Positions 4,510 to 38,631 are shown, counted from the first letter of the stretch. The stretch: DNA of 38,631 bases from an uncultured Gammaproteobacteria bacterium (GCA_964360925.1 CAYHYP010000001.1:1-38631); one strand, 5' to 3'. The notes: generated by a model not told the origin, from the letters alone. Numbers and translations: made by a program.

Positions 4510-4510
4510 A

Positions 4511-6411: not shown

Positions 6412-6448
6412 ACTTGACAAAATGCGGTTTCAGTTATAACATAATATT

Positions 6449-7700: not shown

Positions 7701-7704
7701 AAAA

Positions 7705-7758
7705 AATAATAATATTTTTGATTATAATATCTTAGTGGGGAATTATGGGAAACTTTAA
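7705..7758 (+). pseudogene. orphan 3'-end remnant of a tail-motif gene
   Basis: Reads NNNIFDYNILVGNYGKL* in the 60-nt gap between the AbiEii gene and the ATPase gene. Near-identical at DNA level to the 3' ends of 3292-4509 and 5134-6411. Confidence 0.5.
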
Positions 7759-14850: not shown

Positions 14851-15278
14851 TTTATCATTTAACATTTATTATTTATCATTTTTATTCATGATCGCACTGT
14901 CCAAAAGTCAGGAATTAGAAAATAGAACGACAAAATTTAGTATAAATTTAGTAAATTTATGTAAGAAATTTCCAAGGGTTTTAATAACTCAGAATATTAT
15001 TGAACAACTACTTCGTTCTGGAACAAGTATTGGGGCAAATTATCGAGAAGCAAACGGAGCATCAAGTAGAAAAGACTTTCGAAATAAAATATTAATTTGT
15101 AAAAAAGAATGTAAAGAAACTGAGTATTGGTTGCAGATGTTGGCAAATGCAGCTGATGATGATTTTGTCAGTAATAGTTGTAGGATATTGTGGAAAGAAA
15201 CACATGAATTTAATCTAATATTCTCAAGTGCTGCTGCAAATACTAAATGTTAAATAAATGAAAAATAATAAATAAAAA
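14851..15278 (+). mobile_element. four-helix-bundle gene cassette bounded by AT-rich heptamer repeats / 16-of-17 inverted repeat, inserted between def and fmt
   Basis: Left arm TTTATTATTTATCATTT (14865-14881). Right arm AAATGAAAAATAATAAA (15256-15272), whose reverse complement matches at 16/17. The left flank has 7-nt periodicity (TTTATCA TTTAACA TTTATTA TTTATCA). Confidence 0.4.
14888..15253 (+). CDS. four-helix-bundle protein (23S rRNA intervening-sequence protein family, TIGR02436-like)
   Basis: GTSIGANYREANGASSRKDFRNKILICKKECKETEYWLQML is the family signature. Confidence 0.85.
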   Translation: MIALSKSQELENRTTKFSINLVNLCKKFPRVLITQNIIEQLLRSGTSIGANYREANGASSRKDFRNKILICKKECKETEYWLQMLANAADDDFVSNSCRILWKETHEFNLIFSSAAANTKC

Positions 15279-18290: not shown

Positions 18291-18965
18291 CTACATATAT
18301 TTTTTCTTTAACCGGATCGTTTCGCCGGAAAAATATTTCTTAATTTGCCCCCAATCAACTTTTCTAAACATCTTTGGCATTTCCGTTGTTTCAGTTTCCA
18401 CAAAATAAGAAAGACCCAGCAAAAAACTGTATACTCCGGATTCAAAATTACCATATTTTTCTCGGTATATTTCCAGACAACTATCCAAAGAAATATTTTG
18501 ATAATAAGATAATTCGTACAAATCAACAAAGTCTTTTTTGGTGCCACGATTCATAACTGCCCCTATTTTCATTGCCCCAATCTCTCTTGGGTCTAAAATT
18601 GGTATTCCCAAAAAATCATGTGTAGGAAATATTACGGGGTAAGAATAACGAAAAAGACTACAATGAGTTTGTCCATACGCCCAAAGAAGAGTATCGTCTG
18701 CAACTCTGTCCTCGGTATATTTTCCAAGTTTTTTAAGTTCAAAAGAAAGAGTCGGTTGGTGAAAAGATTTTGGGATAAAAAAATCCAAATCAACAGAAAT
18801 TCTATGGCCAAAATGCAAAGCCAATGCTGTTCCCCCTGCCAAATATGTCCCCTTTGGCAAAGTGTTTGTTTTTCCTAGTATGGCCAGACACTCCTGCGCA
18901 TCTCCCGGTAAGACTTTTGTAAACATAAAACCTGATTTTGGGGGATATTTAACACCAACTGCCAA
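18291..18965 (-). CDS. AbiEii-like nucleotidyltransferase (putative toxin)
   Basis: LAGGTALALHFGHRISVDLDFF motif. The stop codon directly abuts the 3' end of tRNA-Tyr. The true start may be ATG 18926. Confidence 0.65.
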   Translation of the reverse strand: MAVGVKYPPKSGFMFTKVLPGDAQECLAILGKTNTLPKGTYLAGGTALALHFGHRISVDLDFFIPKSFHQPTLSFELKKLGKYTEDRVADDTLLWAYGQTHCSLFRYSYPVIFPTHDFLGIPILDPREIGAMKIGAVMNRGTKKDFVDLYELSYYQNISLDSCLEIYREKYGNFESGVYSFLLGLSYFVETETTEMPKMFRKVDWGQIKKYFSGETIRLKKKYM

Positions 18966-19200: not shown

Positions 19201-20232
19201 TTATTTCTCATTGTTAAAAAAATTCAAAGTATCTTTAACTGCCTCGTTCCATTTTGGAACCATATTGTGATCTGCCCCCACGTACTCTTTATAAACTAAT
19301 TTGAAATTTAAAATTTGAAATTTGAAATTAAAGTCGCGATTCCAACGAACCGGAACCCATTCGTCAGCTTCTCCCTGTTGAATAAATATTGGCGCTTTTA
19401 TACTGTCTAAATATTTATCAAACGAATATTTATTGACGTCATAATCTTTTTCAAAATCAGCGGTGGCTTTTCTTAACCACAAACCTTCATCTTTATAACC
19501 GTCGGTATAATATAAAATGTTATATGGAAAAGATTTGGTCACCGGATTCCATAAAACCGTAGGAACCTGCCTACCGGCAGGCAAGATGGTTAATATTGTC
19601 AGAGCAATTTGCCCGCCATTGGAATGACCCCATAACATTAATTTACAACTGTCATCCTGACGAAGGTCAGGATCTCTCAACTTGTTTGAGTTAACACTCG
19701 CATTCGCGAGAGATGCTGAAACAAGTTCAGCATGACAGATTGAAGCTATTAAATCCATATTCGTGGTATACGTCAAAAATCTATTTTCAAAATCATCCCG
19801 ATGGCCATCGGGATCAGATTCCCCATATCCCAAAAAATCGGGGGCAAAAGTGACATAACCGTTTTTTGCCAGAACCTCGGCAACTTTTTGGGTTCCAAAA
19901 CCGGGAAAATATTCTCCCTCGTCTGCCGAACCATGAAGCAATAAAATTGCCGGTTTAACAGTGGCACTTTGGGTAGCTCCGTTTATTATTCCGGAAATTT
20001 TTTTGCCGTCGGAAGAATAATAAAATTTGTTGCCGGAAAAAGTAATCTCCGAAGGGATCCCTCCCCGTTTGCGTAAATTCTCTATCGTATATTTGTCCAG
20101 GGGTTTTTCAAAAAAGGGTTTGATTAAAGGAGAAGCCGGATATCTTTCTTTGAAATTTCCAAGCAAAAATATAACACTTACAATTATAATCGTAATTAAT
20201 AAAATTAAAAATCCAACCAGCCACTTTTTCAT
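19201..20232 (-). CDS. membrane-anchored alpha/beta hydrolase (S9/dienelactone-hydrolase-like) with repeat insertions
   Basis: N-terminal TM helix. Nucleophile elbow GHSNGG. Late GADH. Repeat inserts at 19566-19585 and 19651-19736. Confidence 0.7.
   Translation of the reverse strand: MKKWLVGFLILLITIIIVSVIFLLGNFKERYPASPLIKPFFEKPLDKYTIENLRKRGGIPSEITFSGNKFYYSSDGKKISGIINGATQSATVKPAILLLHGSADEGEYFPGFGTQKVAEVLAKNGYVTFAPDFLGYGESDPDGHRDDFENRFLTYTTNMDLIASICHAELVSASLANASVNSNKLRDPDLRQDDSCKLMLWGHSNGGQIALTILTILPAGRQVPTVLWNPVTKSFPYNILYYTDGYKDEGLWLRKATADFEKDYDVNKYSFDKYLDSIKAPIFIQQGEADEWVPVRWNRDFNFKFQILNFKLVYKEYVGADHNMVPKWNEAVKDTLNFFNNEK
19566..19585. repeat. imperfect copy of the CCTGCC..GGCAGG palindrome, inside the hydrolase gene
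   Basis: cctgcctaccggcaggcaag. Translated LPAGRQ on the minus strand. Confidence 0.7.
19651..19736. repeat. 86-nt composite triple-hairpin element, copy A (inside the hydrolase gene)
   Basis: gtcatcctgacgaaggtcaggatc-tctcaacttgtttgag..ctcgcattcgcgagaga-tgctgaaacaagttcagcatgac. Confidence 0.9.
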
Positions 20233-23545: not shown

Positions 23546-24769
23546 TTATGGCTTTTTCTCCCCAATAATTATTTCTATCAGGAGCTTGCCGGAGACGCTG
23601 GAATCGGAAATTGGCTCTATGGCGGTTTCCTTATAAGTTTCCAAAAGAACGGTTTTAAGCTCTGCCACAATCTTTTCCGGCACCGATTTGGAAGGCCTGA
23701 TTCTGGTAGCCGCAAAACCGGCGCTGGTGGCATTTTTAGTTTCCGTAATTTCAAATCCCAACGCTTTTAGTTTTTCCGCTGCCCGGCCCGCTTCCCCGGT
23801 TACCAAAGTCCCGTTGAGAATTTTCAGAGCATAATCTTCCGGTTTTGGTTGTGGCACCACCACTGGTTGAGTTTGAGTTTCTTTCTGTTTTGTAACCTCC
23901 TTTTTGGCTGTTGCCGCGGGCAAATTGCGAACCACAATCACCACCAAAGCAAAACCTACCAAAGCCGCGCCAATCAAAGAAAGATGTTTTGGGTTAACAT
24001 TTATTTTTGGTAAAGTGAATTTAGATTTGTTCCCGGCCGCCAAAACCGTCAAATCATAAATATCCGTACTTTCCAAAGGAGTAACATTCCAACCTAATTT
24101 TTGTACATTAGAAAGAGCCTCGGTGCTAAAAATTCCCAAGGTAAAAGCATTTTTAACCTCTGCCAAATTATGACTGCCGATAAAATCAGGTAATTGGCTG
24201 GCAAAAACGTCCAATTTAAAGGCTCCCAATTCCAAAATTTCTCCATTTTCACAAACAACCACCACAATTTCTTTTTCCAAAGGAAAAGTCAGAAAATATT
24301 TCCCGCTTTGAGGATACTTTGAAGCTAAAACGGCGGCTCCACTTTTAACGCCGATCACCTTTTTCCCCATATCTAAAAATGGGCGCTGGAAATCCTCTAC
24401 CAACTTTTTTTCAATCGCTACATAAGTAGTTCTGCTATCCGTTTTGGTTTTTTTGATCTCGCTGGTGACTACCAATTCCTCATTAAAATACGGTAAAGTG
24501 CGGATAAATCCGTCGGGAGAATCGGCGCTTGGTAAAGTTTTGATAAAAGTTTTGTCAGGAGAAAGAAAAAGAAGAACCTCGGACATTTCCCCCAGATTGC
24601 TTTTTTGAGAGAGGGTCACTTTTACCTGGCTGGCAAATTTTTCCGGGTCGGCTATAAATCCATCCCGAAGTACCTCGTTGGAAAAGGATATTTGACCGGC
24701 AAAAGTGCGGGTTTTACCTTTATACGCCAGAAGTTTTAGATTGTCTTTTTCCAAAAATGCCACAAGCAT
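23546..24769 (-). CDS. membrane protein with C-terminal LytR_C-like domain
   Basis: Central TM (LSLIGAALVGFALVVIVV). C-terminal YALKILNGTLVTGEAGRAAEKLKALGFEITETKNA resembles the LytR/CpsA/Psr C-terminal domain. Confidence 0.55.
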   Translation of the reverse strand: MLVAFLEKDNLKLLAYKGKTRTFAGQISFSNEVLRDGFIADPEKFASQVKVTLSQKSNLGEMSEVLLFLSPDKTFIKTLPSADSPDGFIRTLPYFNEELVVTSEIKKTKTDSRTTYVAIEKKLVEDFQRPFLDMGKKVIGVKSGAAVLASKYPQSGKYFLTFPLEKEIVVVVCENGEILELGAFKLDVFASQLPDFIGSHNLAEVKNAFTLGIFSTEALSNVQKLGWNVTPLESTDIYDLTVLAAGNKSKFTLPKINVNPKHLSLIGAALVGFALVVIVVRNLPAATAKKEVTKQKETQTQPVVVPQPKPEDYALKILNGTLVTGEAGRAAEKLKALGFEITETKNATSAGFAATRIRPSKSVPEKIVAELKTVLLETYKETAIEPISDSSVSGKLLIEIIIGEKKP

Positions 24770-24790
24770 ACTAATAGTTTAGACACCCTC

Positions 24791-24819
24791 TTGATAATTT
24801 GCAAGTCCCTTGTTACAAT
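24791..24819 (+). promoter_or_regulatory. promoter TTGATA-17-TACAAT, 6 nt before the secE ATG (leaderless candidate)
   Basis: TTGATA 24791-24796, TACAAT 24814-24819, ATG 24825. Confidence 0.5.
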
Positions 24820-24824
24820 CACTT

Positions 24825-25043
24825 ATGAAAGATTTTACGGTCACGGCGCCTGATTTTGGCAAAAGCCCGCTGGCATTTTTTAAAGAAGTTAAAACGGAGC
24901 TTTCAAAAGTTTCCTGGCCAAATAGACCAACGGTGTTAAGATTAACCGGCGTCGTCATCGGAGCATCTATAATAGTAGGGATTTATTTGGGAGGATTGGA
25001 TTACATATTTACGAAGATAATAGAGATATTGTTGAGAAAATAG
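24825..25043 (+). CDS. secE: preprotein translocase subunit SecE
   Basis: FFKEVKTELSKVSWPNRPTVLRLTGVVIGASIIVGIYLGGLD, directly upstream of nusG. The track start at 24810 is TTG; the ATG at 24825 is preferred. Confidence 0.85.
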   Translation: MKDFTVTAPDFGKSPLAFFKEVKTELSKVSWPNRPTVLRLTGVVIGASIIVGIYLGGLDYIFTKIIEILLRK

Positions 25044-25045
25044 GC

Positions 25046-25169
25046 GTCATTCTGGAGCCCGAAGGGCGATAGAATCTTTTTATCAGAATAGATCCTAGTG
25101 GCGAAGCCGCGAGCTTGCTCATCACTCGCTTCGCTCGTTCCAGGATGACGAAAAAATTACAGAATGACG
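25046..25169. repeat. GTCAT-hairpin cluster filling the secE-nusG intergenic region
   Basis: gtcattctggagcccgaagggcgatagaatc + gatcctagtggcgaagccgcgagcttgctcatcactcgcttcgctcgttccaggatgacg + partial cagaatgacg. Confidence 0.9.
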
Positions 25170-25176
25170 AAATTAT

Positions 25177-25761
25177 ATGGATGAAAATATAAATCAAAAT
25201 CCTGAGCCAATTATGGAAACAGCGATTGTGGTTCCGGACAATGCCCGTTGGTACGTTTTGCATACGTACTCCGGTCACGAGCAAAAAGTTGCCGCCGCCA
25301 TAAAACAGCGCGTTGAGGCAATGAAAATCGTCGGCCGCGTTTTTGACGTGATTGTCCCCACCCGCGACACGATTGTGGTTAAAAGAGGCAAAAAAGAAGA
25401 GGTCAAAGAAAAAATTTTCCCGGGATATATTTTAATTCAAATGATTTTGGATGATGATTCCTGGTTGGTCGTGCGGACCACTCCCGGTGTTACCTCTTTT
25501 GTAGGCGTTGGTAACCGCCCAACTCCCCTTTCCGAAAAAGAAGTTGACGCCATCACCAAATTTGCCAAACTTTCCGCGCCCAAATTTAAAACTCATGTTA
25601 CCAAAGGTGAAGCCGTTAAAATCGTGGACGGGCCGTTCGCGGACTTTTTGGGAACGGTTGATGCAGTAGATGACGCCAGAGGAAAAGTAAAGGTGTTGGT
25701 TTCCATTTTTGGCCGCGAAACCCCGGTGGAGTTAGATTTCCTCCAAGTAGCAAAACTATGA
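25177..25761 (+). CDS. nusG: transcription termination/antitermination factor NusG
   Basis: RWYVLHTYSGHEQKV NGN domain, KOW GEAVKIVDGPFADFLGTV. Confidence 0.93.
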   Translation: MDENINQNPEPIMETAIVVPDNARWYVLHTYSGHEQKVAAAIKQRVEAMKIVGRVFDVIVPTRDTIVVKRGKKEEVKEKIFPGYILIQMILDDDSWLVVRTTPGVTSFVGVGNRPTPLSEKEVDAITKFAKLSAPKFKTHVTKGEAVKIVDGPFADFLGTVDAVDDARGKVKVLVSIFGRETPVELDFLQVAKL

Positions 25762-25840
25762 ACAGTTTCTAATCCCAAAAGACGAACAATAGATCATGAT
25801 TCTCCTGATTTCTATCAGACTCCCTAAATAAAATTTGTTA

Positions 25841-25869
25841 TTGTACTATCAAATTCGTTTTGTTATAAT
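25841..25869 (+). promoter_or_regulatory. promoter TTGTAC-17-TATAAT upstream of rplK
   Basis: TTGTAC 25841-25846, TATAAT 25864-25869. GGGAG RBS at 25897-25901. Confidence 0.5.
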
Positions 25870-25907
25870 TCAAAGACCAATCGGAATTTTCTGGCTGGGA
25901 GCTTAAA

Positions 25908-26330
25908 ATGGCGAAAAAAATAAAAACTCTTATAAAATTAAATTTACCTGCCGGGGAAGCAACCCCTGCCCCTCCTGTTGGTCCCGCTCTTGGACAACAC
26001 GGTCTTCCTATCATGGATTTCGTTAGGGCCTACAATGAAAAAACCAAAGACCAAAAAGGTCAGGTAATTCCTGCCGTTATTACCGTTTATGTAGACAAAA
26101 CATTCACATTTATTACAAAGCTTCCGCCAGTAGCAGAATTGATCAAAAAAGAATTAAAATTGGAACACGGCTCCAAAACCCCAAAACGGGAAACGGTGGG
26201 GACACTGACAACGGCCCAAGCCAGAAAAATTGCCGAAGTAAAAATGGCGGATTTAAACGCCAATGATCTGGATGCGGCTACAAAAATTGTTCAAGGAACA
26301 GCGAGGAGCATGGGGATAAAGAATGAGTAA
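25908..26330 (+). CDS. rplK: 50S ribosomal protein L11
   Basis: [29 protein letters not shown]. Confidence 0.95.
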
Positions 26331-26344
26331 TTTGAAAAACATGT

Positions 26345-26447
26345 GTCATTCCGGCGAAGGCCGGAATCTCTCGCGCCCTGCCTGCCGGCAGGCAGGAATG
26401 CGAGTTCCCAAACAAGTTGGGAGATGCTGAAACAAGTTCAGCATGAC
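26345..26447. repeat. GTCAT-hairpin cluster including the 20-bp palindrome, rplK-rplA intergenic region
   Basis: gtcattccggcgaaggccggaatc..cctgcctgccggcaggcagg..gagatgctgaaacaagttcagcatgac. Confidence 0.9.
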
Positions 26448-26480
26448 ACAAGGAAGATTATAAATTGTAAATTTTGGAGT

Positions 26481-27290
26481 ATGGGCAAAATAAAAACAGT
26501 CATCATGGGAGACGAGAAAGCGGAAGAACAGGCCCGCAAAAAAGTCGTGGCTAAAAGAGTGGCTAAAAAGGCAGCCCGTCATCCTGGAACGAGCGAAGCG
26601 AGTGATGAGCAAGCTCGCGGCTTCGCCACTAGGATCTATTCTGATAAAAAGATTCTATCAGCCGCCGTTGGCGGCTTCCAGAATGACGCTGGGGAGACGC
26701 TCCAGCATGACGAAAAAACAAAAGGCAAAAATTACCTCAAAGTTAAGAGTTTAGTTGATAAAACCAAGAAATATTCTATTAACGAAGCCTTGGATTTGGT
26801 CAAAAAAACCAGCTACTCCAAATTTGACGGATCGGTGGAAGTGGTTTTCAACGTTTTATCCAAAGGCCTTCGTGGCAACGTAACTTTGCCCCACGGTACC
26901 GGCAAAACTCTGCGCATCAAAATCGCCGACGACGCTCTTGTTGCCAACCCGGTGATAGATTTTGACATTTTGGTCGCCCACCCCTCTATGATGCCAAAAT
27001 TGGCAAAAATTGCCAAAATCCTGGGTCCCCGCGGTTTGATGCCCAATCCCAAAACCGGAACTATTGGAGAAAATGTGGAGGAGTTGGTCCTTCGACTTCG
27101 CTCAGGGCAGCAAAGCTGGAAAACCGAAAGCGACTTCCCTATCATCCATACAATTCTCGGCAAGGTTTCTTTTGAAGAAAAAAAACTCTCGGAAAATTTT
27201 GCCGTCTTGTTAAAATCTATCACCAAAGACAAAATAGTTTCAATTTTTGTTAAGGCTACAATGGGCCCCAACGTCAGAGTACAAATTTAA
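26481..27290 (+). CDS. rplA: 50S ribosomal protein L1 with Lys/Ala-rich N-terminal extension and ~45-aa repeat-derived insertion
   Basis: The L1 core starts at KGKNYLKVKSLVDKTKKYSINEALDLVKK..FDGSVEV. Preferred start is ATG 26481 with GGAG 2 nt upstream. The track ORF from 26343 runs through a repeat cluster. Confidence 0.88.
   Translation: MGKIKTVIMGDEKAEEQARKKVVAKRVAKKAARHPGTSEASDEQARGFATRIYSDKKILSAAVGGFQNDAGETLQHDEKTKGKNYLKVKSLVDKTKKYSINEALDLVKKTSYSKFDGSVEVVFNVLSKGLRGNVTLPHGTGKTLRIKIADDALVANPVIDFDILVAHPSMMPKLAKIAKILGPRGLMPNPKTGTIGENVEELVLRLRSGQQSWKTESDFPIIHTILGKVSFEEKKLSENFAVLLKSITKDKIVSIFVKATMGPNVRVQI
26578..26712. repeat. GTCAT-hairpin cluster, in frame in rplA
   Basis: Translated RHPGTSEASDEQARGFATRIYSDKKILSAAVGGFQNDAGETLQHD. 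Confidence 0.9.
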
Positions 27291-28071
27291 TATTTTCTTT
27301 AATTATTGTTTTAAAATTGGCTACGAAATTATCGAGTTCCCTGCTTGATTCAATAAACGGCAATAAATCTCTATAAACATCTTCTTTATTAATTTTTTCA
27401 ACTTTTTTAATTATTTCCAGGGCAATTTTTTGAGAATTTTTAATGTCCGGTTTTAGGGACCAGTTCGCTCTTTTTGATCTTTCCAAAAACCAGACAATAT
27501 CAAATAGATCCCTGCCCTTGAAAGGAACTGCTTGTTTGTTCCCTTTGAAATATACTCTTTCTATAAACGCGGTAATTTTATTAGTGAAAAGCGTTGCTAA
27601 ATCATAGGCTAAAACAAAAATAGTAAAATCCCCCGCGGAAATAGAATTGATTTCTGTCTTAAAACTTCCCGGCTTTTGGGCGCAAAAATCACAACGGACA
27701 AAAAGCACCGGCGAATTTCCAAAATTTATAGGGAATTTCAAAAAGACGGTTTTTCCGTTACCGCTTATTTTGGTAGTCATTTCTTTATACGAAATCTCTT
27801 CAATCAAATATCTTGTAATTTTGGAAGTAAATTTTTCTATTTCAAATTCGTCTGTAAAATTAAAATCTAAATCTTCTGATAGACGGGGCAGACCATAAAT
27901 TTTTCGTAAACAAGTTCCGCCGGTAAAAATTAAGGTTTTATAATCAGGATCATTGTAAACAAAATTAAGCACGTAATTTTGCAACGCCTCTTTAAGCAAG
28001 CTCCGGGTAAAAAAAGCGTTTTTGCTTACTGATTGTTGTTCAAGAATATTTTTTAAATCATCAGAAATCAT
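27274..28071 (-). CDS. AbiEii/AbiGii-family nucleotidyltransferase toxin
   Basis: FTGGTCLRKIYGLPRLSEDLDFNF. 4-nt overlap with the upstream AbiEi gene. Its 3' end overlaps the rplA 3' end convergently. Confidence 0.75.
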   Translation of the reverse strand: MISDDLKNILEQQSVSKNAFFTRSLLKEALQNYVLNFVYNDPDYKTLIFTGGTCLRKIYGLPRLSEDLDFNFTDEFEIEKFTSKITRYLIEEISYKEMTTKISGNGKTVFLKFPINFGNSPVLFVRCDFCAQKPGSFKTEINSISAGDFTIFVLAYDLATLFTNKITAFIERVYFKGNKQAVPFKGRDLFDIVWFLERSKRANWSLKPDIKNSQKIALEIIKKVEKINKEDVYRDLLPFIESSRELDNFVANFKTIIKENIKFVL

Positions 28072-28670
28072 AAAATTCCTTTACGCTTTAAGAATACAAC
28101 GATTTTTTGCATTTTTCCAGAATTTGAGGCTTTTACTAGCTCCCCAAATTCTGTTTTATCTTCTAGAGATAACGCGTCCCAATTCATTCTGTCTTCACTT
28201 TTTAAATACCCACTGTCTTTTAAGTATAAAAGATCAAAAAGCGCTTTGGCGGGACTGGCGATCTTGCGTCCATAATTTTCAAACAAAGATTTTTTAATAT
28301 GACGATAGCTAAAAGTTCCCACGGCGGATTTATAAACACGGGGGGATTTTATGGTTACGGAGGTAATTGCAAAAGACGTTTCAGGCAAAAAACCACAGTT
28401 AGATAAAACATACTCCAAAGAGACGTAGGAAGGAAACCGTAACATATTGGCTAAATATTCAAAATAATCTTCCCTCTTTTTTGATTCCTGAGAAACTAAA
28501 TCTAAATAATACGAGGAAATATAAAAACCCTTTTTCAAACTTATCAGATCCCCATCTTTAATTAGTTTTTTTATCCAATAATCTGTGTTGTCCCTCTTTT
28601 TACCCAAAGCCAACGCCAGATTTTGCTTGGTAAAATACGGCGCTTGTTTTAAAATGTCATTTAGTTTCAT
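28068..28670 (-). CDS. AbiEi-family antitoxin / transcriptional regulator
   Basis: PSYVSLEYVLSNCGFLPE motif. Paralog of 6449-7027 and 31888-32496. Confidence 0.7.
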   Translation of the reverse strand: MKLNDILKQAPYFTKQNLALALGKKRDNTDYWIKKLIKDGDLISLKKGFYISSYYLDLVSQESKKREDYFEYLANMLRFPSYVSLEYVLSNCGFLPETSFAITSVTIKSPRVYKSAVGTFSYRHIKKSLFENYGRKIASPAKALFDLLYLKDSGYLKSEDRMNWDALSLEDKTEFGELVKASNSGKMQKIVVFLKRKGIL

Positions 28671-28885
28671 AATTAGTAGTAATTACTACCAATTGTGACA
28701 GGAAATATTAAATTTGTCAAGCCCCCTGGTAATTTGGTCTATGAAAATAAAACCGAAACCGGAGGCAGCCGGGCGAACGACGGAGACTGTTTATTGAAAA
28801 GAGTTGCCATTGATAGTACCACGTATTCTGTTTCAACCTAACCCATTATTACGATTCCCCTTTGTAAATCCTTGTATTTTATATA

Positions 28886-28919
28886 CATCACACTAACAAG
28901 CGGCCGCTTTATGCTGTGA
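28886..28919. repeat. direct-repeat copy 1 with GCGGCCGC palindromic core (downstream flank of 28950-29612)
   Basis: CATCACACTAACAAGCGGCCGCTTTATGCTGTGA. Shares ACATCACA-N5-CAAGCGGCCGCTTTAT with copy 2. Confidence 0.6.
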
Positions 28920-28949
28920 CGGGAAACAGATACGGGTTTCAAATAAACG

Positions 28950-29612
28950 TTAAGTGAAAAACCAATTATGATAATAATCATCCCCTTCAAATCGTTCACT
29001 AACCAAATAAGTGACTTCTTTGCTCACATTAAATACCTGACGAATAAACTCCACCTCGTTTTCGCATGGATGAGGAAAAATTAAAACACTTTCGTTTAAA
29101 GAAATAAAACCAATTTCCTTTAATTTTCCCCGCAGCCGATCCCGCAATCTTCTTTTGGTTTCCGCCACATCAAAAATAACCAGTCTCCACTTGCTATCCC
29201 ACTTGTCCGGTTTTTTAATTTTCATCTCTTCAAATTTATATTCCAAAGCTTTTTTATGTCCGTCCTGTGTAATTTCCACTTTTGTCTCACCATTTTCATA
29301 GGTTATTTTCACCAACTTGCGTCTTTTGAGTCGCTCCAATCTTTGGTTAAATTTAGTTCTTTCCCGCCATTTGAGTTCTTTTCCCACAACGGCTGCCAAA
29401 CCGGGAGCAATAACCGCCAAACTAATGGCACCACCAACCGCCAAAATCATCAAAAGATCCTTCGTCAATGGATATTTTTCAATCCCCTTTTTGAGCTTTT
29501 TCTCCCAACTTTCTTTTTCCGGAGCAAAAATTTTTGCCGCCATTTCCCAATTTATCCCGCTTGTCCCGACCGAGTCGGGAACCAAATCGGAGTCTACCCT
29601 ATTATTTGTCAT
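28950..29612 (-). CDS. PaaX-like / Cas2-fold domain protein with a TM helix (putative regulator)
   Basis: C-terminal KWDSKWRLVIFDVAETKRRLRDRLRGKLKEIGFISLNESVLIFPHP matches the PaaX_C/Cas2-like pattern (WDgkW..v.fDiPe..r..Rd.lr..L...GF..l..SV...P). Confidence 0.5.
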   Translation of the reverse strand: MTNNRVDSDLVPDSVGTSGINWEMAAKIFAPEKESWEKKLKKGIEKYPLTKDLLMILAVGGAISLAVIAPGLAAVVGKELKWRERTKFNQRLERLKRRKLVKITYENGETKVEITQDGHKKALEYKFEEMKIKKPDKWDSKWRLVIFDVAETKRRLRDRLRGKLKEIGFISLNESVLIFPHPCENEVEFIRQVFNVSKEVTYLVSERFEGDDYYHNWFFT

Positions 29613-29806: not shown

Positions 29807-30280
29807 ATGCCAAAAGAAAAAAATATCCAGTCTGTTGCCAAAATCAAAGAAAAATTATCCCGTGCCAAGGGCGTGGTTTTGACGGATTATCAGGGGCTGA
29901 CTCACAAACAACTTGAGCAATTGCATTTGGCTTTGAAAAATGTTGGCGCGGAATATTTGGTGGTAAAAAATAGTTTACTAAAAATTGCTTCTGCAGAGAT
30001 GCTGAAACAAGTTCAGCATGACACAATTATTGGTCCAACGGCAGCTCTTTTTTCTTTTGACGATACCTTGTCCCCGCTTAAAGAACTTTTTAAATTTATA
30101 AAAGCCAATGCCTTGCCAAAAGTTAAAAGCGGAAATATTGACGGAAAAACTTACGAAGCCGCGGAGTTGGCAGTTTTGGCCGCTTTGCCTTCAAGAAACG
30201 ATCTCATTTCACAACTTATGTATACACTTAATGCGAATACACAGAAACTGGCTTATCTTTTGACACAAATTAAAAAATAA
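29807..30280 (+). CDS. rplJ: 50S ribosomal protein L10 with short repeat-derived insertion
   Basis: KEKLSRAKGVVLTDYQGLTHKQLEQLHLALKNVGAEYLVVKNSLLKIA. Upstream of rplL. Confidence 0.9.
   Translation: MPKEKNIQSVAKIKEKLSRAKGVVLTDYQGLTHKQLEQLHLALKNVGAEYLVVKNSLLKIASAEMLKQVQHDTIIGPTAALFSFDDTLSPLKELFKFIKANALPKVKSGNIDGKTYEAAELAVLAALPSRNDLISQLMYTLNANTQKLAYLLTQIKK
29998..30022. repeat. single hairpin unit, in frame in rplJ
   Basis: gatgctgaaacaagttcagcatgac. Translated (E)MLKQVQHD. Confidence 0.85.
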
Positions 30281-30286
30281 AACTAC

Positions 30287-30366
30287 GTCATTCTGGAACG
30301 AGCGAAGCGAAGTGATAGAATCTATTTTTAGAAAGATCCTATCGCCCTTCGGGCTCCAGGATGACG
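30287..30366. repeat. fwd + rev unit pair filling the rplJ-rplL intergenic region
   Basis: gtcattctggaacgagcgaagcgaagtgatagaatc .. gatcctatcgcccttcgggctccaggatgacg. Confidence 0.9.
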
Positions 30367-30772: not shown

Positions 30773-30774
30773 AT

Positions 30775-30799
30775 GTCATCCTGAACTTGTTTCAGGATC
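30775..30799. repeat. single hairpin unit 3 nt after the rplL stop
   Basis: gtcatcctgaacttgtttcaggatc. Confidence 0.85.
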
Positions 30800-30807
30800 T
30801 CATTAAA

Positions 30808-32816: not shown

Positions 32817-32866
32817 CCAATCTTCCAATATCCAATTTTTCAATTTCCAATAACCAATGACCAATT
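32817..32866. repeat. CCAAT-type heptamer tandem tract (flank of four-helix-bundle gene)
   Basis: CCAATCT TCCAATA TCCAATT TTTCAAT TTCCAAT AACCAAT GACCAAT. Confidence 0.7.
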
Positions 32867-33222
32867 TATTTTGAGGATTTTATTAGGATAGAACTAACGA
32901 TTGCTTCAATTTCCTGGCCCTCTTTTATTAACGGCTCCATACGTTTTGAATAACCTGGATTCGTAGCAGAAATCATTTTTAACCAATAATTTGTCTCCTT
33001 TGTTTCTTTTTTAACAACCGTAAAACTATTCACAAACTGTTTTTTACTAGTAGACCCGTCTGCTTCTTGACCATTTGCTCCCATGGAAGTTGCTGATCTG
33101 GAGATTTGGTTAACAAAACCTAAATTTTGAACAGTCTTTGGAAGAACTTTTGTTAAATTTACTACACGTACAACAAAATCAAATATTCTATTGTGAATGT
33201 CAAAATCAGCCATATATTTCAA
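32866..33222 (-). CDS. four-helix-bundle protein (23S rRNA IVS protein family)
   Basis: SATSMGANGQEADGSTSKKQFVNSFTVVKKETKETNYWLKMI. The track start 33222 is TTG; ATG 33213 (MADFDIHNRIFDF) is likelier. Confidence 0.85.
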   Translation of the reverse strand: MKYMADFDIHNRIFDFVVRVVNLTKVLPKTVQNLGFVNQISRSATSMGANGQEADGSTSKKQFVNSFTVVKKETKETNYWLKMISATNPGYSKRMEPLIKEGQEIEAIVSSILIKSSK

Positions 33223-33368
33223 TCAATCCAATCATCCAATTCCCAATTATTCAATATCCAATCAACCAATTTCCAATATTTCAATTGGTCATTGAGAATT
33301 GGATATTGATTAGTATTGGCTATTGGTCATTGGTTTTATTGATGTTGGTCATTAGTTGATTGATTTTG
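33223..33368. repeat. CCAAT heptamer tract switching to inverted ATTGG/TTGGTCA heptamers (long imperfect palindrome)
   Basis: CCAAT-phase repeats run to ~33284, then ATTGGTCATTGAGAATTGGATATTGATTAGTATTGGCTATTGGTCATTGG.... Overlaps the last ~10 codons of galT. Confidence 0.7.
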
Positions 33369-34457
33369 TGAAATTCCCTCTTTGTACTCCTCCGCTGCTG
33401 TTTTTGGATCTACAATATTGACCAATATCCCCGTCCCCAGTTCAAAACCGGCCCGGTGAATAAACCGCGGAATAATCCGCAAATACCAATTTTGTCCGTG
33501 ATAAATATAAAAGTTGTAAGGGATGTCTGTTTCGTCATTCTGGAGCGAAGCGATGAACGAGCTCGAGGCTTCGCCACTAGCATCTGTTTTGGAAGATCCT
33601 ATCGGGCTTTGCCCTCCAGGATGACCACGTTTAAATTTATTTACAATTGCTTTTAATATTTTTTGTAAAACTACTGCCAGATCTGAAATTTGATCGTCTG
33701 TAATATGACCAAAGGTAGATTCTATCGGTCGCTTTGCTCCCTCCAGAATGACGTCATGCTGGAGCGAAGCGATAGCATCTTCTCTTGGAGTAATCCACAC
33801 CTCATATGGCCATTCCGAATAATCCGGGCAATAAGCTGTGAACTGTGAACTTTGCATTACTACGTTTGCTACCGGTTCCCGAACAATGTTTTCCACGGAA
33901 ATTTCCGGTGGCACCACTACTACTTGTGAATGCGGATGCTCCAACGACGCCCCCGCGTGAATATCGTGATTGTTAAAAATCAAAACGGTTCCAAACCTCT
34001 TATTATAGTTATATCTCTGCCTGTAAGTCTGCAAAATCAGTTCCACTTGTTTTAAGGGCAACTCGTCAATGTCCTTCTCGTGATCGGGACTATGGATAAT
34101 AACCTCATGAAACTCCGTCAAGGGGTATTTATTTGTGATAACACGAATTAACCAGTTAGAAGATCCTATCGCCCCGCCGCGGCGGGGCTCCAGGATGACG
34201 TCATTCTGGAGGGCGGAGCCCGATAGAATCTTTTTACCAGAATAGATCCTAGCGGCAAAGCCGCGAGCTTGCTCATCACTCGCTTCGCTCGTTCCAGGAT
34301 GACGTATGACAAACACTTCCTTATTTAACCTCTCGTTTCCGGGGCAAAATGGGCAACTATTTTGTGGGTGAGCCACACTATCATGCGGCCTTGTGACCCG
34401 TGCCGGGGCAATAATTACAAACTTATTTCCTTTGATATTATGTCTAAAATTTGCCAC
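33336..34457 (-). CDS. galT: galactose-1-phosphate uridylyltransferase (HIT family) with three repeat-derived insertions
   Basis: GTG start. CPFCPGNE zinc motif, EHPHSQVVVVP (HxHxQ) active site. Confidence 0.85.
   Translation of the reverse strand: MANFRHNIKGNKFVIIAPARVTRPHDSVAHPQNSCPFCPGNERLNKEVFVIRHPGTSEASDEQARGFAARIYSGKKILSGSALQNDVILEPRRGGAIGSSNWLIRVITNKYPLTEFHEVIIHSPDHEKDIDELPLKQVELILQTYRQRYNYNKRFGTVLIFNNHDIHAGASLEHPHSQVVVVPPEISVENIVREPVANVVMQSSQFTAYCPDYSEWPYEVWITPREDAIASLQHDVILEGAKRPIESTFGHITDDQISDLAVVLQKILKAIVNKFKRGHPGGQSPIGSSKTDASGEASSSFIASLQNDETDIPYNFYIYHGQNWYLRIIPRFIHRAGFELGTGILVNIVDPKTAAEEYKEGISQNQSTNDQHQ
33534..33625. repeat. GTCAT-hairpin cluster, in frame in galT (C-terminal part)
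   Basis: gtcattctggagcgaagcgatgaacgagctcgaggcttcgccactagcatc .. gatcctatcgggctttgccctccaggatgac. Confidence 0.85.
33718..33779. repeat. rev + fwd unit pair, in frame in galT
   Basis: gattctatcggtcgctttgctccctccagaatgac-gtcatgctggagcgaagcgatagcatc. Confidence 0.85.
34162..34304. repeat. three-unit cluster, in frame in galT (N-terminal part)
   Basis: gatcctatcgccccgccgcggcggggctccaggatgac-gtcattctggagggcggagcccgatagaatc..gatcctagcggcaaagccgcgagcttgctcatcactcgcttcgctcgttccaggatgacg. Confidence 0.9.
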
Positions 34458-35114: not shown

Positions 35115-35237
35115 GTCATTCTGGAGCCCTTTTCCGTCATGCTGGAGCGCAGCGATAGCATCTTCTTTTGTTTTTAGATAGATCCTATCGGTCGTTTCAC
35201 TCCCTCCAGGATGACGGTGTCAGGCTTCCAGGATGAC
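35115..35237. repeat. cluster spanning the 35104-35173 intergenic region and the 3' end of 35174-36811
   Basis: gtcattctggagccc.. gtcatgctggagcgcagcgatagcatc .. gatcctatcggtcgtttcactccctccaggatgac .. ttccaggatgac. Confidence 0.85.
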
Positions 35238-36811
35238 ACACTGGTTGGTCTTATACTATCAATTTTATCACTATTTTTATTGACTAAATAAGTCCCTTCG
35301 TCCGTCTCTACTTTGCGGCGGCGGATGGCTTTTTTGGGTTTATGTAAAACATGGAGAGGATAAAATTCAAAATAATCTTTTTCGTCAAACCAGGCGCATT
35401 TAAATTCAAAGAGGCGTAACCCGGTCAATCTGGATAAAGCCATAGCATACAGTGTCAATTGTTCAATCGGCCGCTCTTTTTCGGCGTTAGGTTTAAAGTC
35501 CAAAAGATGAATCATCCCGTTTCTAATTTGCACAAAATCAATATGGCCGGTAATCAATTTTGGTAATTTGTCATGCTGGAGCGTCTCTGCGTCATTCTGG
35601 AGCGAAGCGATAGAATCTATTTTTTCGTTGGAAGATCCTATCGTCCCGCTTAGCGGGACTCCAGGATGACGCTGAAATATCTCAAATCCCAGTTGGCTCT
35701 TCATATGTTCCAAATCGTCCCGCGTCAAATACACCGGCACTTCCGTGGCGACAGTGACAGAATCGTTATAAAGCATAAATTTTTGCAAAATCTCATGGCG
35801 GTTTTTTCTCTCTTTTGCCCCCTGCAAAACAAACGCCGCCAATTTTGTGGCGTAATTGGTTTTTCCCCGGACGATCATGGCTGTTTTGGAAAATGCCAGC
35901 GGCGTTTCCGAAGCCCGTTCTCCCTGGTTAAAATACTGATGTGGACACTCCCCCGGCACCATTTCCAAAAACTCCACCAGCGGAGTAAAAAGCCGGTGAT
36001 GGAAATTTTCCTGCATAATAAGCCTGCATTTTGCCCGGTGAAATCTGAATCTGTAAAGTTGCCGGTGCGCCAAAGTGGCGGTGATTATCATGTCTGTTGG
36101 TTTATATTTTTGCATGGCAAAATCCCGCATTCTTAAAAACGGCAAATCGTCTTTAAATTCCGTGATCCAACTTGATAAAGTTGATGGATTTATTGATAAC
36201 GTGTCATGCTGGAGTGTCCCCCCTGCGTCATTCTGGAGGGCGGAGCCCGATAGAATCTTTTTACCAGAATAGATCCTAGCGGCAAAGCCGCGAGCTTGCT
36301 CATCGCTCGTTTCACTCGCTCCAGGATGACGAACGGCAGGGCTCCAGGATGACGCATGGGCGTTCACCCTCCTACAACTCTCCTCCAGCGAATATCCCAA
36401 ATTATAAAGTGAAATGGCGTCAAAAATGGTAGCCAGAGGATAATGTTTTCCGGAAACGGAATGCGGAGTAAAAGTTTTGTGACAATCTTTGCAAATATAA
36501 AGTTGTACATTCTCCCGTTTTTTAATCCGCAGTCCCCGTCTGACAAAATTTTTATTTAAACAATACGGGCAACAAAATGTGTCAACAATAGGTCTAATTG
36601 TCATCCCAGACAAGCTGGGAGATGCCGGATCGAGTCCGGCATGACACAGTGTCATTCCGGCCTCCGAGCCGGAATCTATACTCGTGTCATCCTGACGAAT
36701 GTCAGGATCTCTCAACTTGTTTGAGTCACTCGCATTCGCGAGAGATCCCGAAACAAGTTCGGGATGACGCTTATTCAATAATTTTTTAATCCCTTCAAAC
36801 ATATTTTTCAT
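35174..36811 (-). CDS. Zn-ribbon + PD-(D/E)XK-nuclease-like protein, heavily invaded by hairpin repeats
   Basis: CCPYCLNKNFV..YICKDCHKTF zinc ribbon. C-terminal GHIDFVQ..IHLLDFKPN resembles a D...(D/E)xK nuclease motif. Four repeat clusters. Alternative start ATG 36604. Confidence 0.55.
   Translation of the reverse strand: MKNMFEGIKKLLNKRHPELVSGSLANASDSNKLRDPDIRQDDTSIDSGSEAGMTLCHAGLDPASPSLSGMTIRPIVDTFCCPYCLNKNFVRRGLRIKKRENVQLYICKDCHKTFTPHSVSGKHYPLATIFDAISLYNLGYSLEESCRRVNAHASSWSPAVRHPGASETSDEQARGFAARIYSGKKILSGSALQNDAGGTLQHDTLSINPSTLSSWITEFKDDLPFLRMRDFAMQKYKPTDMIITATLAHRQLYRFRFHRAKCRLIMQENFHHRLFTPLVEFLEMVPGECPHQYFNQGERASETPLAFSKTAMIVRGKTNYATKLAAFVLQGAKERKNRHEILQKFMLYNDSVTVATEVPVYLTRDDLEHMKSQLGFEIFQRHPGVPLSGTIGSSNEKIDSIASLQNDAETLQHDKLPKLITGHIDFVQIRNGMIHLLDFKPNAEKERPIEQLTLYAMALSRLTGLRLFEFKCAWFDEKDYFEFYPLHVLHKPKKAIRRRKVETDEGTYLVNKNSDKIDSIRPTSVSSWKPDTVILEGVKRPIGSI
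35570..35671. repeat. cluster in frame in 35174-36811
   Basis: gtcatgctggagcgtctctgc-gtcattctggagcgaagcgatagaatc..gatcctatcgtcccgcttagcgggactccaggatgacg. Confidence 0.85.
36203..36354. repeat. cluster in frame in 35174-36811
   Basis: Same unit series as 34200-34304, plus flanking partial units. Confidence 0.9.
36600..36769. repeat. cluster including composite element copy C, at the 5' end of 35174-36811
   Basis: gtcatcccagacaagctgggagatgccggatcgagtccggcatgac..gtcattccggcctccgagccggaatc..copy C (36686-36769). Confidence 0.9.
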
Positions 36812-37237: not shown

Positions 37238-37263
37238 AAAAAGCTCTCGCAAGAGAGCTTTTT
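37238..37263 (-). terminator. rho-independent terminator of the tail-fibre-like gene
   Basis: AAAAAGCTCTC-GCAA-GAGAGCTTTTT, immediately after the stop at 37263-37265. Confidence 0.7.
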
Positions 37264-38631
37264 CATTGGCAAACTCCTTTCGTTCTTATAATCTCCCCAT
37301 TATTTATTTGTACACAATAATCATCTCCCGTAGTTTTGTCTTTCAAAATAATCCCCTTCTCCACCCGCAATTGACCGGAAACGGTGGCATCGCCCAAAAT
37401 GGAAACCGTGCCCGTTAATGATGAAATTTCCGCTTTCAAATCATCAAAATGTAGCAGTCCAACTTGGAGACTGCCACCAATAGAAGTATTTGCCAACTGG
37501 GTAGTCCCCACCACTTTCAAACTTTCGGTAAAATTGGCAAATTGGGCGGAAATAGTTGCCACATCAATATTTGTCCAATTGGATAAATTGGGCAGATTTG
37601 TCAAATTTGTTAAGACCGCGGAATTTGATGCGGTGTCATGCTGAACTTGTTTCAGCATCCCCGATTGACTCGCCATCTCCACTTTCAACAATTCAATTTC
37701 AGTTTGGATTTGAGGAATTAGAGATAATTTTGTAGAAATATCTTGTGTCATTCTGGCCGAGTCCAGAATCATTCCTGAAATACTGGCAATCATGTCATTC
37801 TGGAGCGAAGCGATAGAATCTATATCACGAATTGCGATGGTCAATATCTCACGAGTTTGCAAATTCCGGGCATTTCCTTCTGAAATCGTGAGATTTAACA
37901 GGCCTGAAATTGACGCATTGTCATCCTGAACTTGTTTCAGGATCCCATCCAATTCTTTGATTCCGGCAATGGCATATGGAATTACATTTGACGCATTAAG
38001 TCTTAAGAACCCGTCTGGCCCCGTAGAAACACTGTCAGGGAAGATTTGTTGAAAATCCTGGGCAATGAAACCATAGTGCTCAATATTGGCGATTTCCGGG
38101 TGGGCGGAGAGATATTCGGCGGTATATTTAAACTGCGAGGGCTTTAACTGCGAAATCAGAGCCAAAGCGTTGGGTATAATTTCAATGTCTTGTTTGACAC
38201 GGGCGTCGGAGGTGTTGGTCCATAAAGTTCCGGTTGAAAGTCCGGCGGTTCCGACCACATCTAATTTATGACCGGGGTTAGTCGTCCCGATGCCGACGTT
38301 GCCCGTGGTTGTTATTCTGACCCTTTCCGCTGGTCCTGAAACACCATCAAACGGAGCAAAATAAATATCACCAGTATTAGCCGTGTTCTCATTATCCATC
38401 CCGATGATACTATTTCTGTTCGTTGAACCACCTGTAGTTCGAAGTACTAACTCTACACGCAAATCATTGGTTGCCCCAGCCGTGCTAACCAGCCCGCCAA
38501 TAACTCCATTTTCTAATCCAGTTGTAGCATCTGTATCTTGAACAACCAATTTCCACCCCGGTGCCGTCGTCCCGATGCCGACGTTGCCTTCGATTATCAT
38601 CCCTGACGTTGGCGCAGCTATTGAACCATAT
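37263..38631 (-). CDS. tail-fibre-like / surface fibre protein with S74-type intramolecular chaperone domain (5' end outside window)
   Basis: Frame stays open to the window edge. Repeated GNVGIGTT(A/N)PG.KL(V/D)V. SDARVKQDIEII..HYGFIAQDFQQIFPDSV matches the endosialidase-chaperone (SDxRxK) pattern. C-terminal region carries repeat inserts. Confidence 0.7.
   Translation of the reverse strand, partial: YGSIAAPTSGMIIEGNVGIGTTAPGWKLVVQDTDATTGLENGVIGGLVSTAGATNDLRVELVLRTTGGSTNRNSIIGMDNENTANTGDIYFAPFDGVSGPAERVRITTTGNVGIGTTNPGHKLDVVGTAGLSTGTLWTNTSDARVKQDIEIIPNALALISQLKPSQFKYTAEYLSAHPEIANIEHYGFIAQDFQQIFPDSVSTGPDGFLRLNASNVIPYAIAGIKELDGILKQVQDDNASISGLLNLTISEGNARNLQTREILTIAIRDIDSIASLQNDMIASISGMILDSARMTQDISTKLSLIPQIQTEIELLKVEMASQSGMLKQVQHDTASNSAVLTNLTNLPNLSNWTNIDVATISAQFANFTESLKVVGTTQLANTSIGGSLQVGLLHFDDLKAEISSLTGTVSILGDATVSGQLRVEKGIILKDKTTGDDYCVQINNGEIIRTKGVCQ
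37635..37659. repeat. single hairpin unit in frame in the tail-fibre-like gene
   Basis: gtcatgctgaacttgtttcagcatc. Confidence 0.85.
37747..37820. repeat. two units in frame in the tail-fibre-like gene
   Basis: gtcattctggccgagtccagaatc ... gtcattctggagcgaagcgatagaatc. Confidence 0.85.
37920..37944. repeat. single hairpin unit in frame in the tail-fibre-like gene
   Basis: gtcatcctgaacttgtttcaggatc (identical to 30775-30799). Confidence 0.85.

Follow-up and report, generated by a model that had tools for sequence, protein, structure and literature searches.

The 38.6-kb stretch of DNA analysed here (38,631 nucleotides (nt), hereafter the window, to which all copy counts refer) was deposited under the name of an uncultured Gammaproteobacteria bacterium. 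It carries on its + strand a standard cluster of the genes secE (24810-25043), nusG (25177-25761), rplK (25908-26330) and rplA (26481-27290). We examined the junction between the last two, which encode ribosomal proteins L11 and L1, respectively. One cluster of palindromic repeats is located in the leader of rplA, and a second lies in frame near the beginning of the same gene. The product of rplK (+ strand) contains the Pfam domains Ribosomal_L11_N and Ribosomal_L11, and its TAA stop codon (26328-26330) shares the frame of rplA and is the sole stop between the two reading frames. The canonical core of L1 (26712-27290, + strand, stop codon included) is of the reduced type typical of the Candidate Phyla Radiation (CPR), as indicated by the Pfam match to Ribosomal_L1 (7.4e-28) and by matches to L1 chains in the PDB.

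The best homologues of this L1 are proteins of Microgenomates, Gottesmanbacteria and other Patescibacteria, and near-identical contigs were found in Hainich groundwater samples. The host lineage is a small groundwater bacterium of the Microgenomates, related to Gottesmanbacteria. A scan of the genome collection with L1 did not find the same species, the best matches being 58% identical over the full length of the protein and 73% identical in its core.

Two clusters of one palindromic family

A sequence-only reading of this DNA had placed one repeat cluster in the rplA leader and another in frame near the N-terminus of L1. Both were found at these places, and both are far beyond chance expectation. 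The motif GTCATNCNG has 55 matches in the window, compared with 2.05 +/- 1.6 in shuffled sequences, and approximately 25 repeat clusters account for 5.4% of the window. About two thirds of these clusters are situated inside open reading frames (ORFs), and the rest in spacers, for example those of secE-nusG, rplK-rplA and rplJ-rplL and the one after rplL.

The units share a common plan: the tag, CGTC or TGTC, is followed by an A-T-first stem, which encloses either a short loop or a nested hairpin, and then by a 3-nt tail (CTC, CTA or CTT). Among 65 hairpins detected after GTCAT, the tag was CGTC in 31 cases and TGTC in 26, and both rplA clusters begin and end with a tag. Simple units, such as TGTC-ATGCTGAA-CTTGT-TTCAGCAT-CTC and TGTC-ATCCTGAC-GAAG-GTCAGGAT-CTC, contain loops of 4-5 nt (15 units, with GAAG, GAAT, CTTGT or CTCGA), and 8-bp stems beginning with AT occur in 17 units (e.g. 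ATGCTGAA/TTCAGCAT and ATTCCGGC/GCCGGAAT). Compound units, exemplified by CGTC-ATTCTG-GAGCCCGAAGGGCGA-TAGAAT-CTT, have outer stems of 6-7 bp, which are also AT-first, and “loops” of 11-45 nt that contain a second hairpin. The usual arrangement is an inverted doublet with outward-pointing tags and an AT-rich centre, at times accompanied by extra half units. Judged by this anatomy, both clusters at rplA are copies of one dispersed, CGTC/TGTC-tagged family of the repetitive extragenic palindromic (REP) type.

The leader cluster (26344-26448, + strand), delimited by sequence comparison, unit anatomy and folding, is composed of four hairpins. The first (26344-26370) reads TGTC-ATTCCGGC-GAAG-GCCGGAAT-CTC, the second (26370-26404) CTCGCG...CGAG and the third (26405-26423) CCCAAACAAGTTGGG, while the fourth (26424-26448) is an inverted unit, ATGCTGAA-ACAAG-TTCAGCAT-GACA. 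The tags of the cluster point outward and its TGTC...GACA ends pair, with a closing stem UGUGUC/GACACA; the predicted fold has a minimum free energy of -64.2 kcal/mol (z = -5.9). The earlier description of the spacer as almost entirely repeat was correct as regards the presence of the repeat and slightly overstated as regards its extent, which is 105 of the 150 nt between the two genes (26331-26480). The remainder (26449-26480, + strand), read directly from the sequence, is unique and AT-rich, and it includes a GGAG at 26476-26479, 1 nt before the ATG.

Comparison with relatives revealed that such a spacer is the exception. The rplK-rplA gap of most relatives ranges from -8 to +4 nt. Both clusters are missing from the closest relative (L065), in which rplK and rplA share 8 nt; the leader cluster is also absent from L001, L003 and L019, in which the two genes overlap as well. 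Since most relatives lack the spacer, the leader cluster is a lineage-specific insertion and not a conserved regulator. Relatives carry AATGGGTAA, with the ATG of rplA placed within the end of rplK. On this basis, a 35-codon ORF of the window (26323-26430, + strand), whose ATG overlaps the end of rplK and which runs into the leader repeat and ends with TGA, may be a relic of the ancestral coupled start. The translational coupling presumed at the overlap of the two genes could be broken by insertions of this kind. About 10 relatives have palindromic fillers of 70-150 nt at the same junction, and those of L012 and L020 are GTCAT...ATGAC elements. Together with the L1 linker described below, the rplK-rplA junction appears to be a recurrent landing site for palindromic elements. 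In the Gottesmanbacteria-like contigs L005, L015, L016, L022, L024, L027 and L028, the 70-150 nt fillers are unrelated, species-specific palindromes, one example being GTTAGTTAGTTACTTCGTTACTTAGC...GCTAAGTAAC.

The rplK-rplA spacer had also been presented as the site of L1 autoregulation, which the repeat array might affect. This location of the regulatory site is true of some phyla only: the mRNA site bound by L1 lies ahead of rplK in Proteobacteria, and Cyanobacteria, Actinobacteria, Chloroflexi and some Firmicutes have it ahead of rplA (Fu et al. 2013, PMC3616713). The leader cluster of the window might nevertheless be adaptive, acting either as an L1-binding autoregulatory site or as a REP-type mRNA stabiliser or attenuator by which the L11:L1 ratio would be adjusted once coupling had been lost. 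It is very stable and lies between two co-oriented cistrons, and independent palindromic fillers, including those of L012 and L020, occupy this junction in about 10 relatives. REPs located in operons of Escherichia coli affect mRNA stability, which may be counted in favour of such a role. The position between rplK and rplA, shared with the L1-binding mRNA motif of some phyla (PMC3616713), speaks for it as well. However, a permissive Rfam scan of 24900-27400 (E up to 10) gave only chance-level matches, although the presence in Rfam of a model for the small L1 motif is unconfirmed, and a scan of the whole window at the gathering threshold yielded four tRNAs and no known leader or riboswitch. Units of the leader type are also present in unrelated spacers (secE-nusG, rplJ-rplL and after rplL) and in coding regions, and most relatives, including the closest one, have no rplK-rplA spacer. 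A promoter and terminator scan of 24700-27500 found nothing on the + strand within the spacer, and an internal promoter or terminator is therefore unsupported. An L1-specific role would moreover require a mimic of the H77/H78 region of 23S rRNA; none is evident, and the clade is reported, in the passages of PMC9297842 concerned, to lack H78.

In contrast to the L1-binding motif, then, the cluster has no detectable RNA family match, occupies a spacer that is not conserved among relatives and consists of a dispersed repeat. For these reasons an L1-specific regulatory role of the leader cluster is unlikely, and the view of the array as an L1 regulation site was not upheld. The cluster might influence mRNA stability or the L11:L1 ratio. 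Taken as a whole, we consider the adaptive explanation of the leader cluster improbable.

The second cluster (26577-26711) is a stop-free, in-frame insert of 135 nt, the 45 codons of which encode RHPGTSEASDEQARGFATRIYSDKKILSAAVGGFQNDAGETLQHD. It comprises a REP dimer (26577-26688, + strand, residues 33-69), defined by the same three approaches as the leader cluster, and an extra half unit, GCTGGGGAGACGCTCCAGCATGAC (26689-26711, + strand, residues about 70-77), assigned to repeat family D18. Unit 1 of the dimer is compound (26577-26636, CGTC-ATCCTGG...CTAGGAT-C) and is followed by the AT-rich centre, and the inverted unit 2 (26638-26688) ends with CCAGAATGACG. In the predicted fold the dimer is closed by GUCAU.CUGGA / UCCAG.AUGAC, which results in a closed three-hairpin structure with one extra hairpin (-57.9 kcal/mol, z = -3.5).

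Several copies of the insert were identified in the window. Its first 83 nt (26577-26659) form a perfect (100%) reverse complement of 25068-25150, within the secE-nusG spacer; this spacer is filled by an inverted sister copy (25045-25169, - strand), recognised by repeat identity and unit anatomy, which likewise comprises a REP dimer and an extra half unit. The segment 26577-26667 is 93% complementary to 34214-34304 and 89% complementary to 36241-36331. The former belongs to a copy of the dimer placed in frame in a GalT-like ORF (34199-34304, - strand, translated as RHPGTSEASDEQARGFAARIYSGKKILS) and the latter to a copy within ORF 35174-36811 (36226-36331, - strand), both recognised by complementarity and translation. 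A metagenome scan with the 33-nt core of the insert found one further copy only, an intergenic dimer on contig L070; as far as these data go, the insert subfamily is therefore all but confined to this species. The L070 dimer is located at 1482-1590, and the neighbouring ORFs (153-1154) look by eye, with no family-library scan, like a split IS30-type transposase.

The presence of an 83-nt perfect inverted repeat 1.4 kb from the insert raises the question of whether repeats were misjoined into rplA during assembly, especially as repeats are where contigs of this population tend to end, and the L063 contig starts within the leader cluster. However, both flanks of the insert are continuous in-frame rplA. 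Furthermore, two assemblies obtained independently from other samples (L064 and L063) show the repeat arrangement at rplA with the same junctions, and one of them carries a clean 21-nt variant. An assembly chimera is therefore excluded for all practical purposes.

The L1 extension, its linker and the fate of the insert

According to the relevant passages of Tsurumaki et al. 2022 (PMC9297842), uL1 of Microgenomates has an N-terminal extension of 40-130 residues without a Pfam match, as well as internal deletions. The Lys/Ala-rich N-terminus, treated in the sequence-only reading as part of the oddity of this gene, is this clade-wide extension, and the repeat-derived portion is confined to the 45 residues 33-77. 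The conserved, clade-specific segment of the window L1 (MGKIKTVIMGDEKAEEQARKKVVAKRVAKKAA, 26481-26576, + strand) was recognised by conservation in orthologues and includes a predicted helix (residues 12-32). Dozens of rplA orthologues encoding 240-320 residues start with MGK[VI]K.V.MGDE.AEE.ARKKA.AKREQKK, which is followed by a hypervariable linker of approximately 10-80 residues and then by the core GKKYL..LVDK.K.YS..EAL; more than 100 orthologue clusters have the N-terminal motif and the core within a single ORF. The core of the window L1 begins at about residue 78-81, its Pfam match is limited to residues 159-263, and, relative to the PDB chain (77-109), it lacks around 20 residues at query 148-159. 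The protein thus resembles the CPR-type uL1 in having an extension without a Pfam match and internal deletions of the core. It differs in that 45 of its 77 extension residues are encoded by REPs, whereas the passages of PMC9297842 on this subject attribute no part of the extension to repeats.

The start of translation was assessed by comparison. In the first 30 codons, compared with nine relatives, the changes fall mostly in the third position (84 synonymous and 85 non-synonymous codon differences). This bias, combined with the conservation of the N-terminus, indicates that the segment is coding and that rplA starts at 26481. The start chosen in the sequence-only reading is thus borne out, by the conservation of MGK[IV]K..MGDE among dozens of orthologues; the ribosome-binding site cited in its favour contributes little, as GGAG is separated from the ATG by only 1 nt, and the support is comparative instead. 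The absence of an ATG, GTG or TTG in frame between the insert and the L1 core was confirmed: none occurs inside the insert or from the insert to the INEAL motif, and the first is a TTG at 26790. In the alignment with Bacillus subtilis L1, residue 81 (KGKNY) falls on residue 4, and canonical L1 therefore begins directly after the insert. Because no in-frame start codon is available downstream of the insert, L1 is almost certainly made with the 45 insert residues. The claim that it can be made in no other way also agrees with the location of the N-terminal motif upstream and the core downstream of the insert, and with a strain indel of 21 nt. The peptides predicted to span the insert junctions are HPGTSEASDEQAR and ILSAAVGGFQNDAGETLQHDEK.

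Alternatively, the insert might be absent from mature L1, if translation began at an unusual start or shifted frame from the ATG at 26707, or if the segment were excised from the RNA or the protein. This ATG is located in the last repeat unit and would give MTKKQK..., an L1-like N-terminus, if one base were added; moreover, gene callers disagree on the start of the gene, P0001 and P0002 beginning at the second ATG. As an alternative start, however, ATG 26707 was rejected, being out of frame, with an ORF that stops after 15 codons, and no in-frame start follows the insert. A bypass would sever the conserved N-terminal extension from the core, although all orthologues have both in one ORF, and the strain indel is a multiple of three. 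The 45-residue insert is also devoid of intein or intron features, and Pfam recognised only Ribosomal_L1. We therefore regard loss of the insert from the protein as quite improbable.

L1 N-termini were compared among relatives, as proposed in the sequence-only reading: the extension is clade-wide, and the linker contains repeats in some relatives and none in the closest one. The latter (P0005/L065, 77% identity in the core) has the linker KSVKSVKKPKHRSFSRGKNY. When the insert is removed, the window L1 reads ...KRVAKKAA-EKTKGKNY, and its linker is then similar in length to that of L065. In the linkers of L066-L069, a tagged in-frame unit precedes an inverted partner; both L066 and L069 have the pair intact, and those of L067 and L068 are degenerate. 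The linker of L001 contains a single in-frame REP unit. The linker copies of these relatives differ in subfamily, position and reading frame. Of 120 cluster representatives, at least 10 further ones showed REP-like peptide signatures in the L1 linker. An AlphaFold2 prediction based on the orthologue alignment gave a predicted local distance difference test score below 50 for residues 34-77, 63-70 for the helix of residues 12-32, and 82-95 for the core; because of this low confidence, the insert-bearing linker is probably disordered.

Strains of the same population were also informative. L064 is identical to the window across both clusters, whereas L063 lacks exactly 21 nt, corresponding to the last half unit GCTGGGGAGACGCTCCAGCAT, and differs from the window in five consecutive bases at the 5' junction of the insert (26570-26576; GGCAG versus ACTTT). 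The 204 nt downstream of rplA are identical between strains, as are the repeats. Conservation between strains was consequently rejected, as ambiguous, as evidence of constraint, because the flanking non-repeat DNA is equally identical; it is possible that a recombination mosaic explains the identity of the repeats equally well.

The repeat segment might also serve, after co-option, as a functional peptide or as a module that sets the linker length of the L1 stalk. The REP-derived linker segments of at least 10 related cluster representatives and the 100% conservation of the insert between strains would fit such a role. On the other hand, the linker segments vary between species in subfamily, position, frame and length, the nearest relative has no linker repeat, the predicted order of the segment is low, and the identical insert peptide occurs in unrelated proteins. 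Co-option is thus very improbable.

The reading that we prefer, with a probability of about 0.78, is that selfish palindromes, similar to REPs and to Rickettsia palindromic elements (RPEs), are present in the leader and, in frame, in the linker of rplA, and that the latter copy is translated and tolerated as a passenger rather than retained as a functional module. It draws directly on observed repeat identity, unit anatomy, reading frame, absence from the nearest relative, strain polymorphism and the presence of the same elements in other genes. An ancestral 8-nt overlap of rplK and rplA would have been hit by one compound element and converted into a structured 150-nt spacer. This leader copy would have parted two overlapping genes with presumed coupling, and the old coupled ATG at 26323 would have been left as a relic. 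A second element, the REP dimer with its half unit, would have entered in frame the hypervariable linker between the uL1 extension and the core, and would be transcribed and translated as 45 extra residues. It could persist because the frame is kept, no stop codon is introduced and the linker is permissive. The insert is most likely a tolerated passenger and would then be close to neutral.

It should be borne in mind that several observations weigh against this reading. The Shine-Dalgarno-like GGAG sits just 1 nt from the rplA ATG. The unit tails are CTC or CTA, compared with the published CCA, and many units have long “loops” formed by a second hairpin. A Pfam search of the window ORFs found neither a Y1 nor a DDE transposase, and the retention of the insert in mRNA and protein is something that we infer. 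Furthermore, the REP segments are 100% identical between strains, while the rplA core differs by about 3-5%, and this identity could reflect constraint or gene conversion rather than neutrality. If the preferred reading is correct, the locus is a natural experiment on the uL1 extension, which has no known function, since its linker evidently accepts 45 arbitrary residues.

Elements in other genes and their probable spread

The attention given to rplA in the sequence-only reading made it appear a peculiarity, and this view has to be abandoned: the same elements have colonised coding genes genome-wide, and rplA is one example among them. In def (peptide deformylase, 14170-14850), an in-frame cluster of 129 nt (14537-14665) splits the Pep_deformylase Pfam match in two and lies between the EGCLS and HEMDH motifs, as judged by comparison with E. 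coli Def. The fmt gene (methionyl-tRNA formyltransferase, 15279-16196) contains the in-frame segment IKVDSSGVAASLLIAPPTAGLQNDE (15465-15537) within its N-terminal domain; this segment seems to replace a native stretch of similar length, and not simply to add to it. A single in-frame unit, AEMLKQVQHDTII (29981-30023), is present in rplJ (L10, 29807-30280), where it results in a net gain of 6 residues relative to two relatives, and repeat dimers are located in the rplJ-rplL spacer (30286-30366) and after rplL (30774-30802). In-frame repeats were also identified in a Wzy_C ORF (42-1256; repeats at 511-551 and 1036-1146) and, on the - strand, in an alpha/beta hydrolase gene (19201-20232; repeat at 19650-19737, immediately before the GHSNGG nucleophile motif), in the GalT-like ORF (33336-34457; three clusters within 33533-34304) and in an S74-domain ORF (37263-38600; repeats at 37634-37947). 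The - strand ORF 35174-36811, of 545 residues, carries four repeat clusters. Without the repeats, its product has an N-terminal zinc ribbon of the IS1/IS1595 type (NCBIfam, 4.4e-7) and a weak PD-(D/E)XK match (8.6e-4); it may be a nuclease or a transposase-like protein, and no link to the repeats was seen.

The peptide RHPG[TA]SE..SDEQARGFA.RIYS.KKILS...LQNDAG..LQHD recurs in unrelated proteins of the window, and the ends of the units are read in all three frames across genes (RH[SP]G, SSW and VILE). The elements are open in 1-2 of the 6 frames, as are random windows. A designed coding cassette was rejected as an explanation, given that the elements are not unusually open and that three frames are in use. 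Their use of three frames and their ordinary openness point to insertion followed by selection for frame and position. Provided that the preferred reading holds, in-frame selfish DNA is tolerated even by the universal essential genes (rplA, rplJ, def and fmt) of a genome that is very small. This also has implications for annotation, as odd N-termini and insertions in CPR proteins, as well as contig breaks, may stem from such repeats.

The distribution of the elements suggests that they are mobile, and they would have spread by either transposition or recombination; no transposase able to move them was seen among the window ORFs scanned. In L069, the linker of which contains REP units, a Y1_Tnp gene (2514-3152) is located about 70 nt after rplL, with copies of AAAGATCAGATCTTTT on either side. 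Among NCBIfam models, the REP-associated tyrosine transposase (RAYT) matches this gene best, at a sub-threshold 37.7 bits compared with a cut-off of 80. It is conceivable, though doubtful, that Microgenomates harbour an active REP population mobilised by a RAYT-like Y1 transposase of the kind encoded in L069, and that the gain, loss and turnover of in-frame copies are the source of the uL1 linker and of new loops in the products of def and fmt. If this were true, much of the new protein sequence in these reduced genomes would originate from selfish palindromes, and the class of CGTC-tagged REPs would gain the dedicated transposase that a survey of 2013 could not find.

Other features of the window deserve mention. 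A 2.5-kb island (27274-29612) separates rplA from rplJ, which adjoin each other in L068 and L069. It contains an AbiEii toxin gene, the end of which overlaps the rplA stop by 17 nt, together with a likely antitoxin gene and a PaaX-like gene; two further AbiEii paralogues are present at 6990-7700 and 18291-18965. A direct repeat of about 100 nt occurs in three copies that are 72-77% identical (4423-4522, 6325-6424 and 10116-10215), and a fourth place (7700-7752), following the AbiEii ORF 6990-7700, matches only its 53-nt core. Three of these four places are at the 3' ends of ORFs without a Pfam match. The repeat holds TTTGAYTATAAT and then GTGGGGAATT, and resembles an end common to paralogous genes, joined to a promoter-like signal. 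Proteins of the 23S rRNA intervening-sequence family (PF05635) are encoded twice (14888-15253 and 32866-33222), in both cases outside any rRNA gene.

Likeness to known palindromic elements

The closest counterparts of the window elements are the CGTC REPs. As described in passages of Di Nocera, De Gregorio & Rocco (2013, PMC3733652), these have a CGTC tag with the variants TGTC and CCTC, 8-9 bp stems starting with A-T, loops of 4-5 nt and a short CCA tail, and they form dimers with spacers of 20-100 nt. The same passages identify RPE-4 and RPE-6 of Rickettsia conorii as CGTC REPs, report intragenic REPs and clusters encoding 43-82 residues in several species, and give no known dedicated transposase; Patescibacteria or CPR hosts are not mentioned in them (PMC3733652). 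The window elements share with this class the tag and AT-first stems of 8 bp (the first two pairs being A-T and T-A); loops of 4-5 nt are seen in the simple units but not in the compound ones, and a short tail is present, with a sequence of its own. Also shared are inverted dimers with 20-100 nt spacers that can be folded into one large hairpin, a location between co-oriented ORFs, and the presence of intragenic copies. In contrast, the tail does not read CCA but CTC, CTA or CTT, roughly half of the window units are compound (with an outer stem of 6-7 bp and a second hairpin), modules of four hairpins occur, and the intragenic share, about two thirds of the clusters, is unusually high.

RPE-1 to RPE-8 were reportedly described by Ogata and colleagues in 2000 and 2002; their retention in mRNA is said to have been demonstrated, and RPE-1 is said to be a single element of 100-150 bp. 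Like the RPEs, the window elements are palindromes found in frame in many genes, including housekeeping ones, with the frame kept, in permissive surface regions, and they have intergenic copies too. They differ in the host phylum, and the likeness is one of behaviour; unlike RPE-1, they are modular clusters of 24-60 nt units. By analogy, they are therefore best described as a counterpart of the RPEs and not as a member of that group, because the host is a Microgenomates bacterium. With the REPIN-RAYT system (Bertels & Rainey 2011, PMC3116915) they share the inverted REP doublet that folds into one hairpin, but their tags are CGTC/TGTC instead of GTAG, and a RAYT gene was not found among the window ORFs scanned.

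The literature library that was searched contains no paper linking REPs, REPINs or RPEs with the CPR. In-frame palindromic repeats in Rickettsia and other bacteria, as well as the uL1 extension, are already known. The novelty lies in the host group and in how densely essential genes are populated by intragenic copies, which would extend the range of intragenic, protein-coding palindromes of the REP/RPE type to the Candidate Phyla Radiation.

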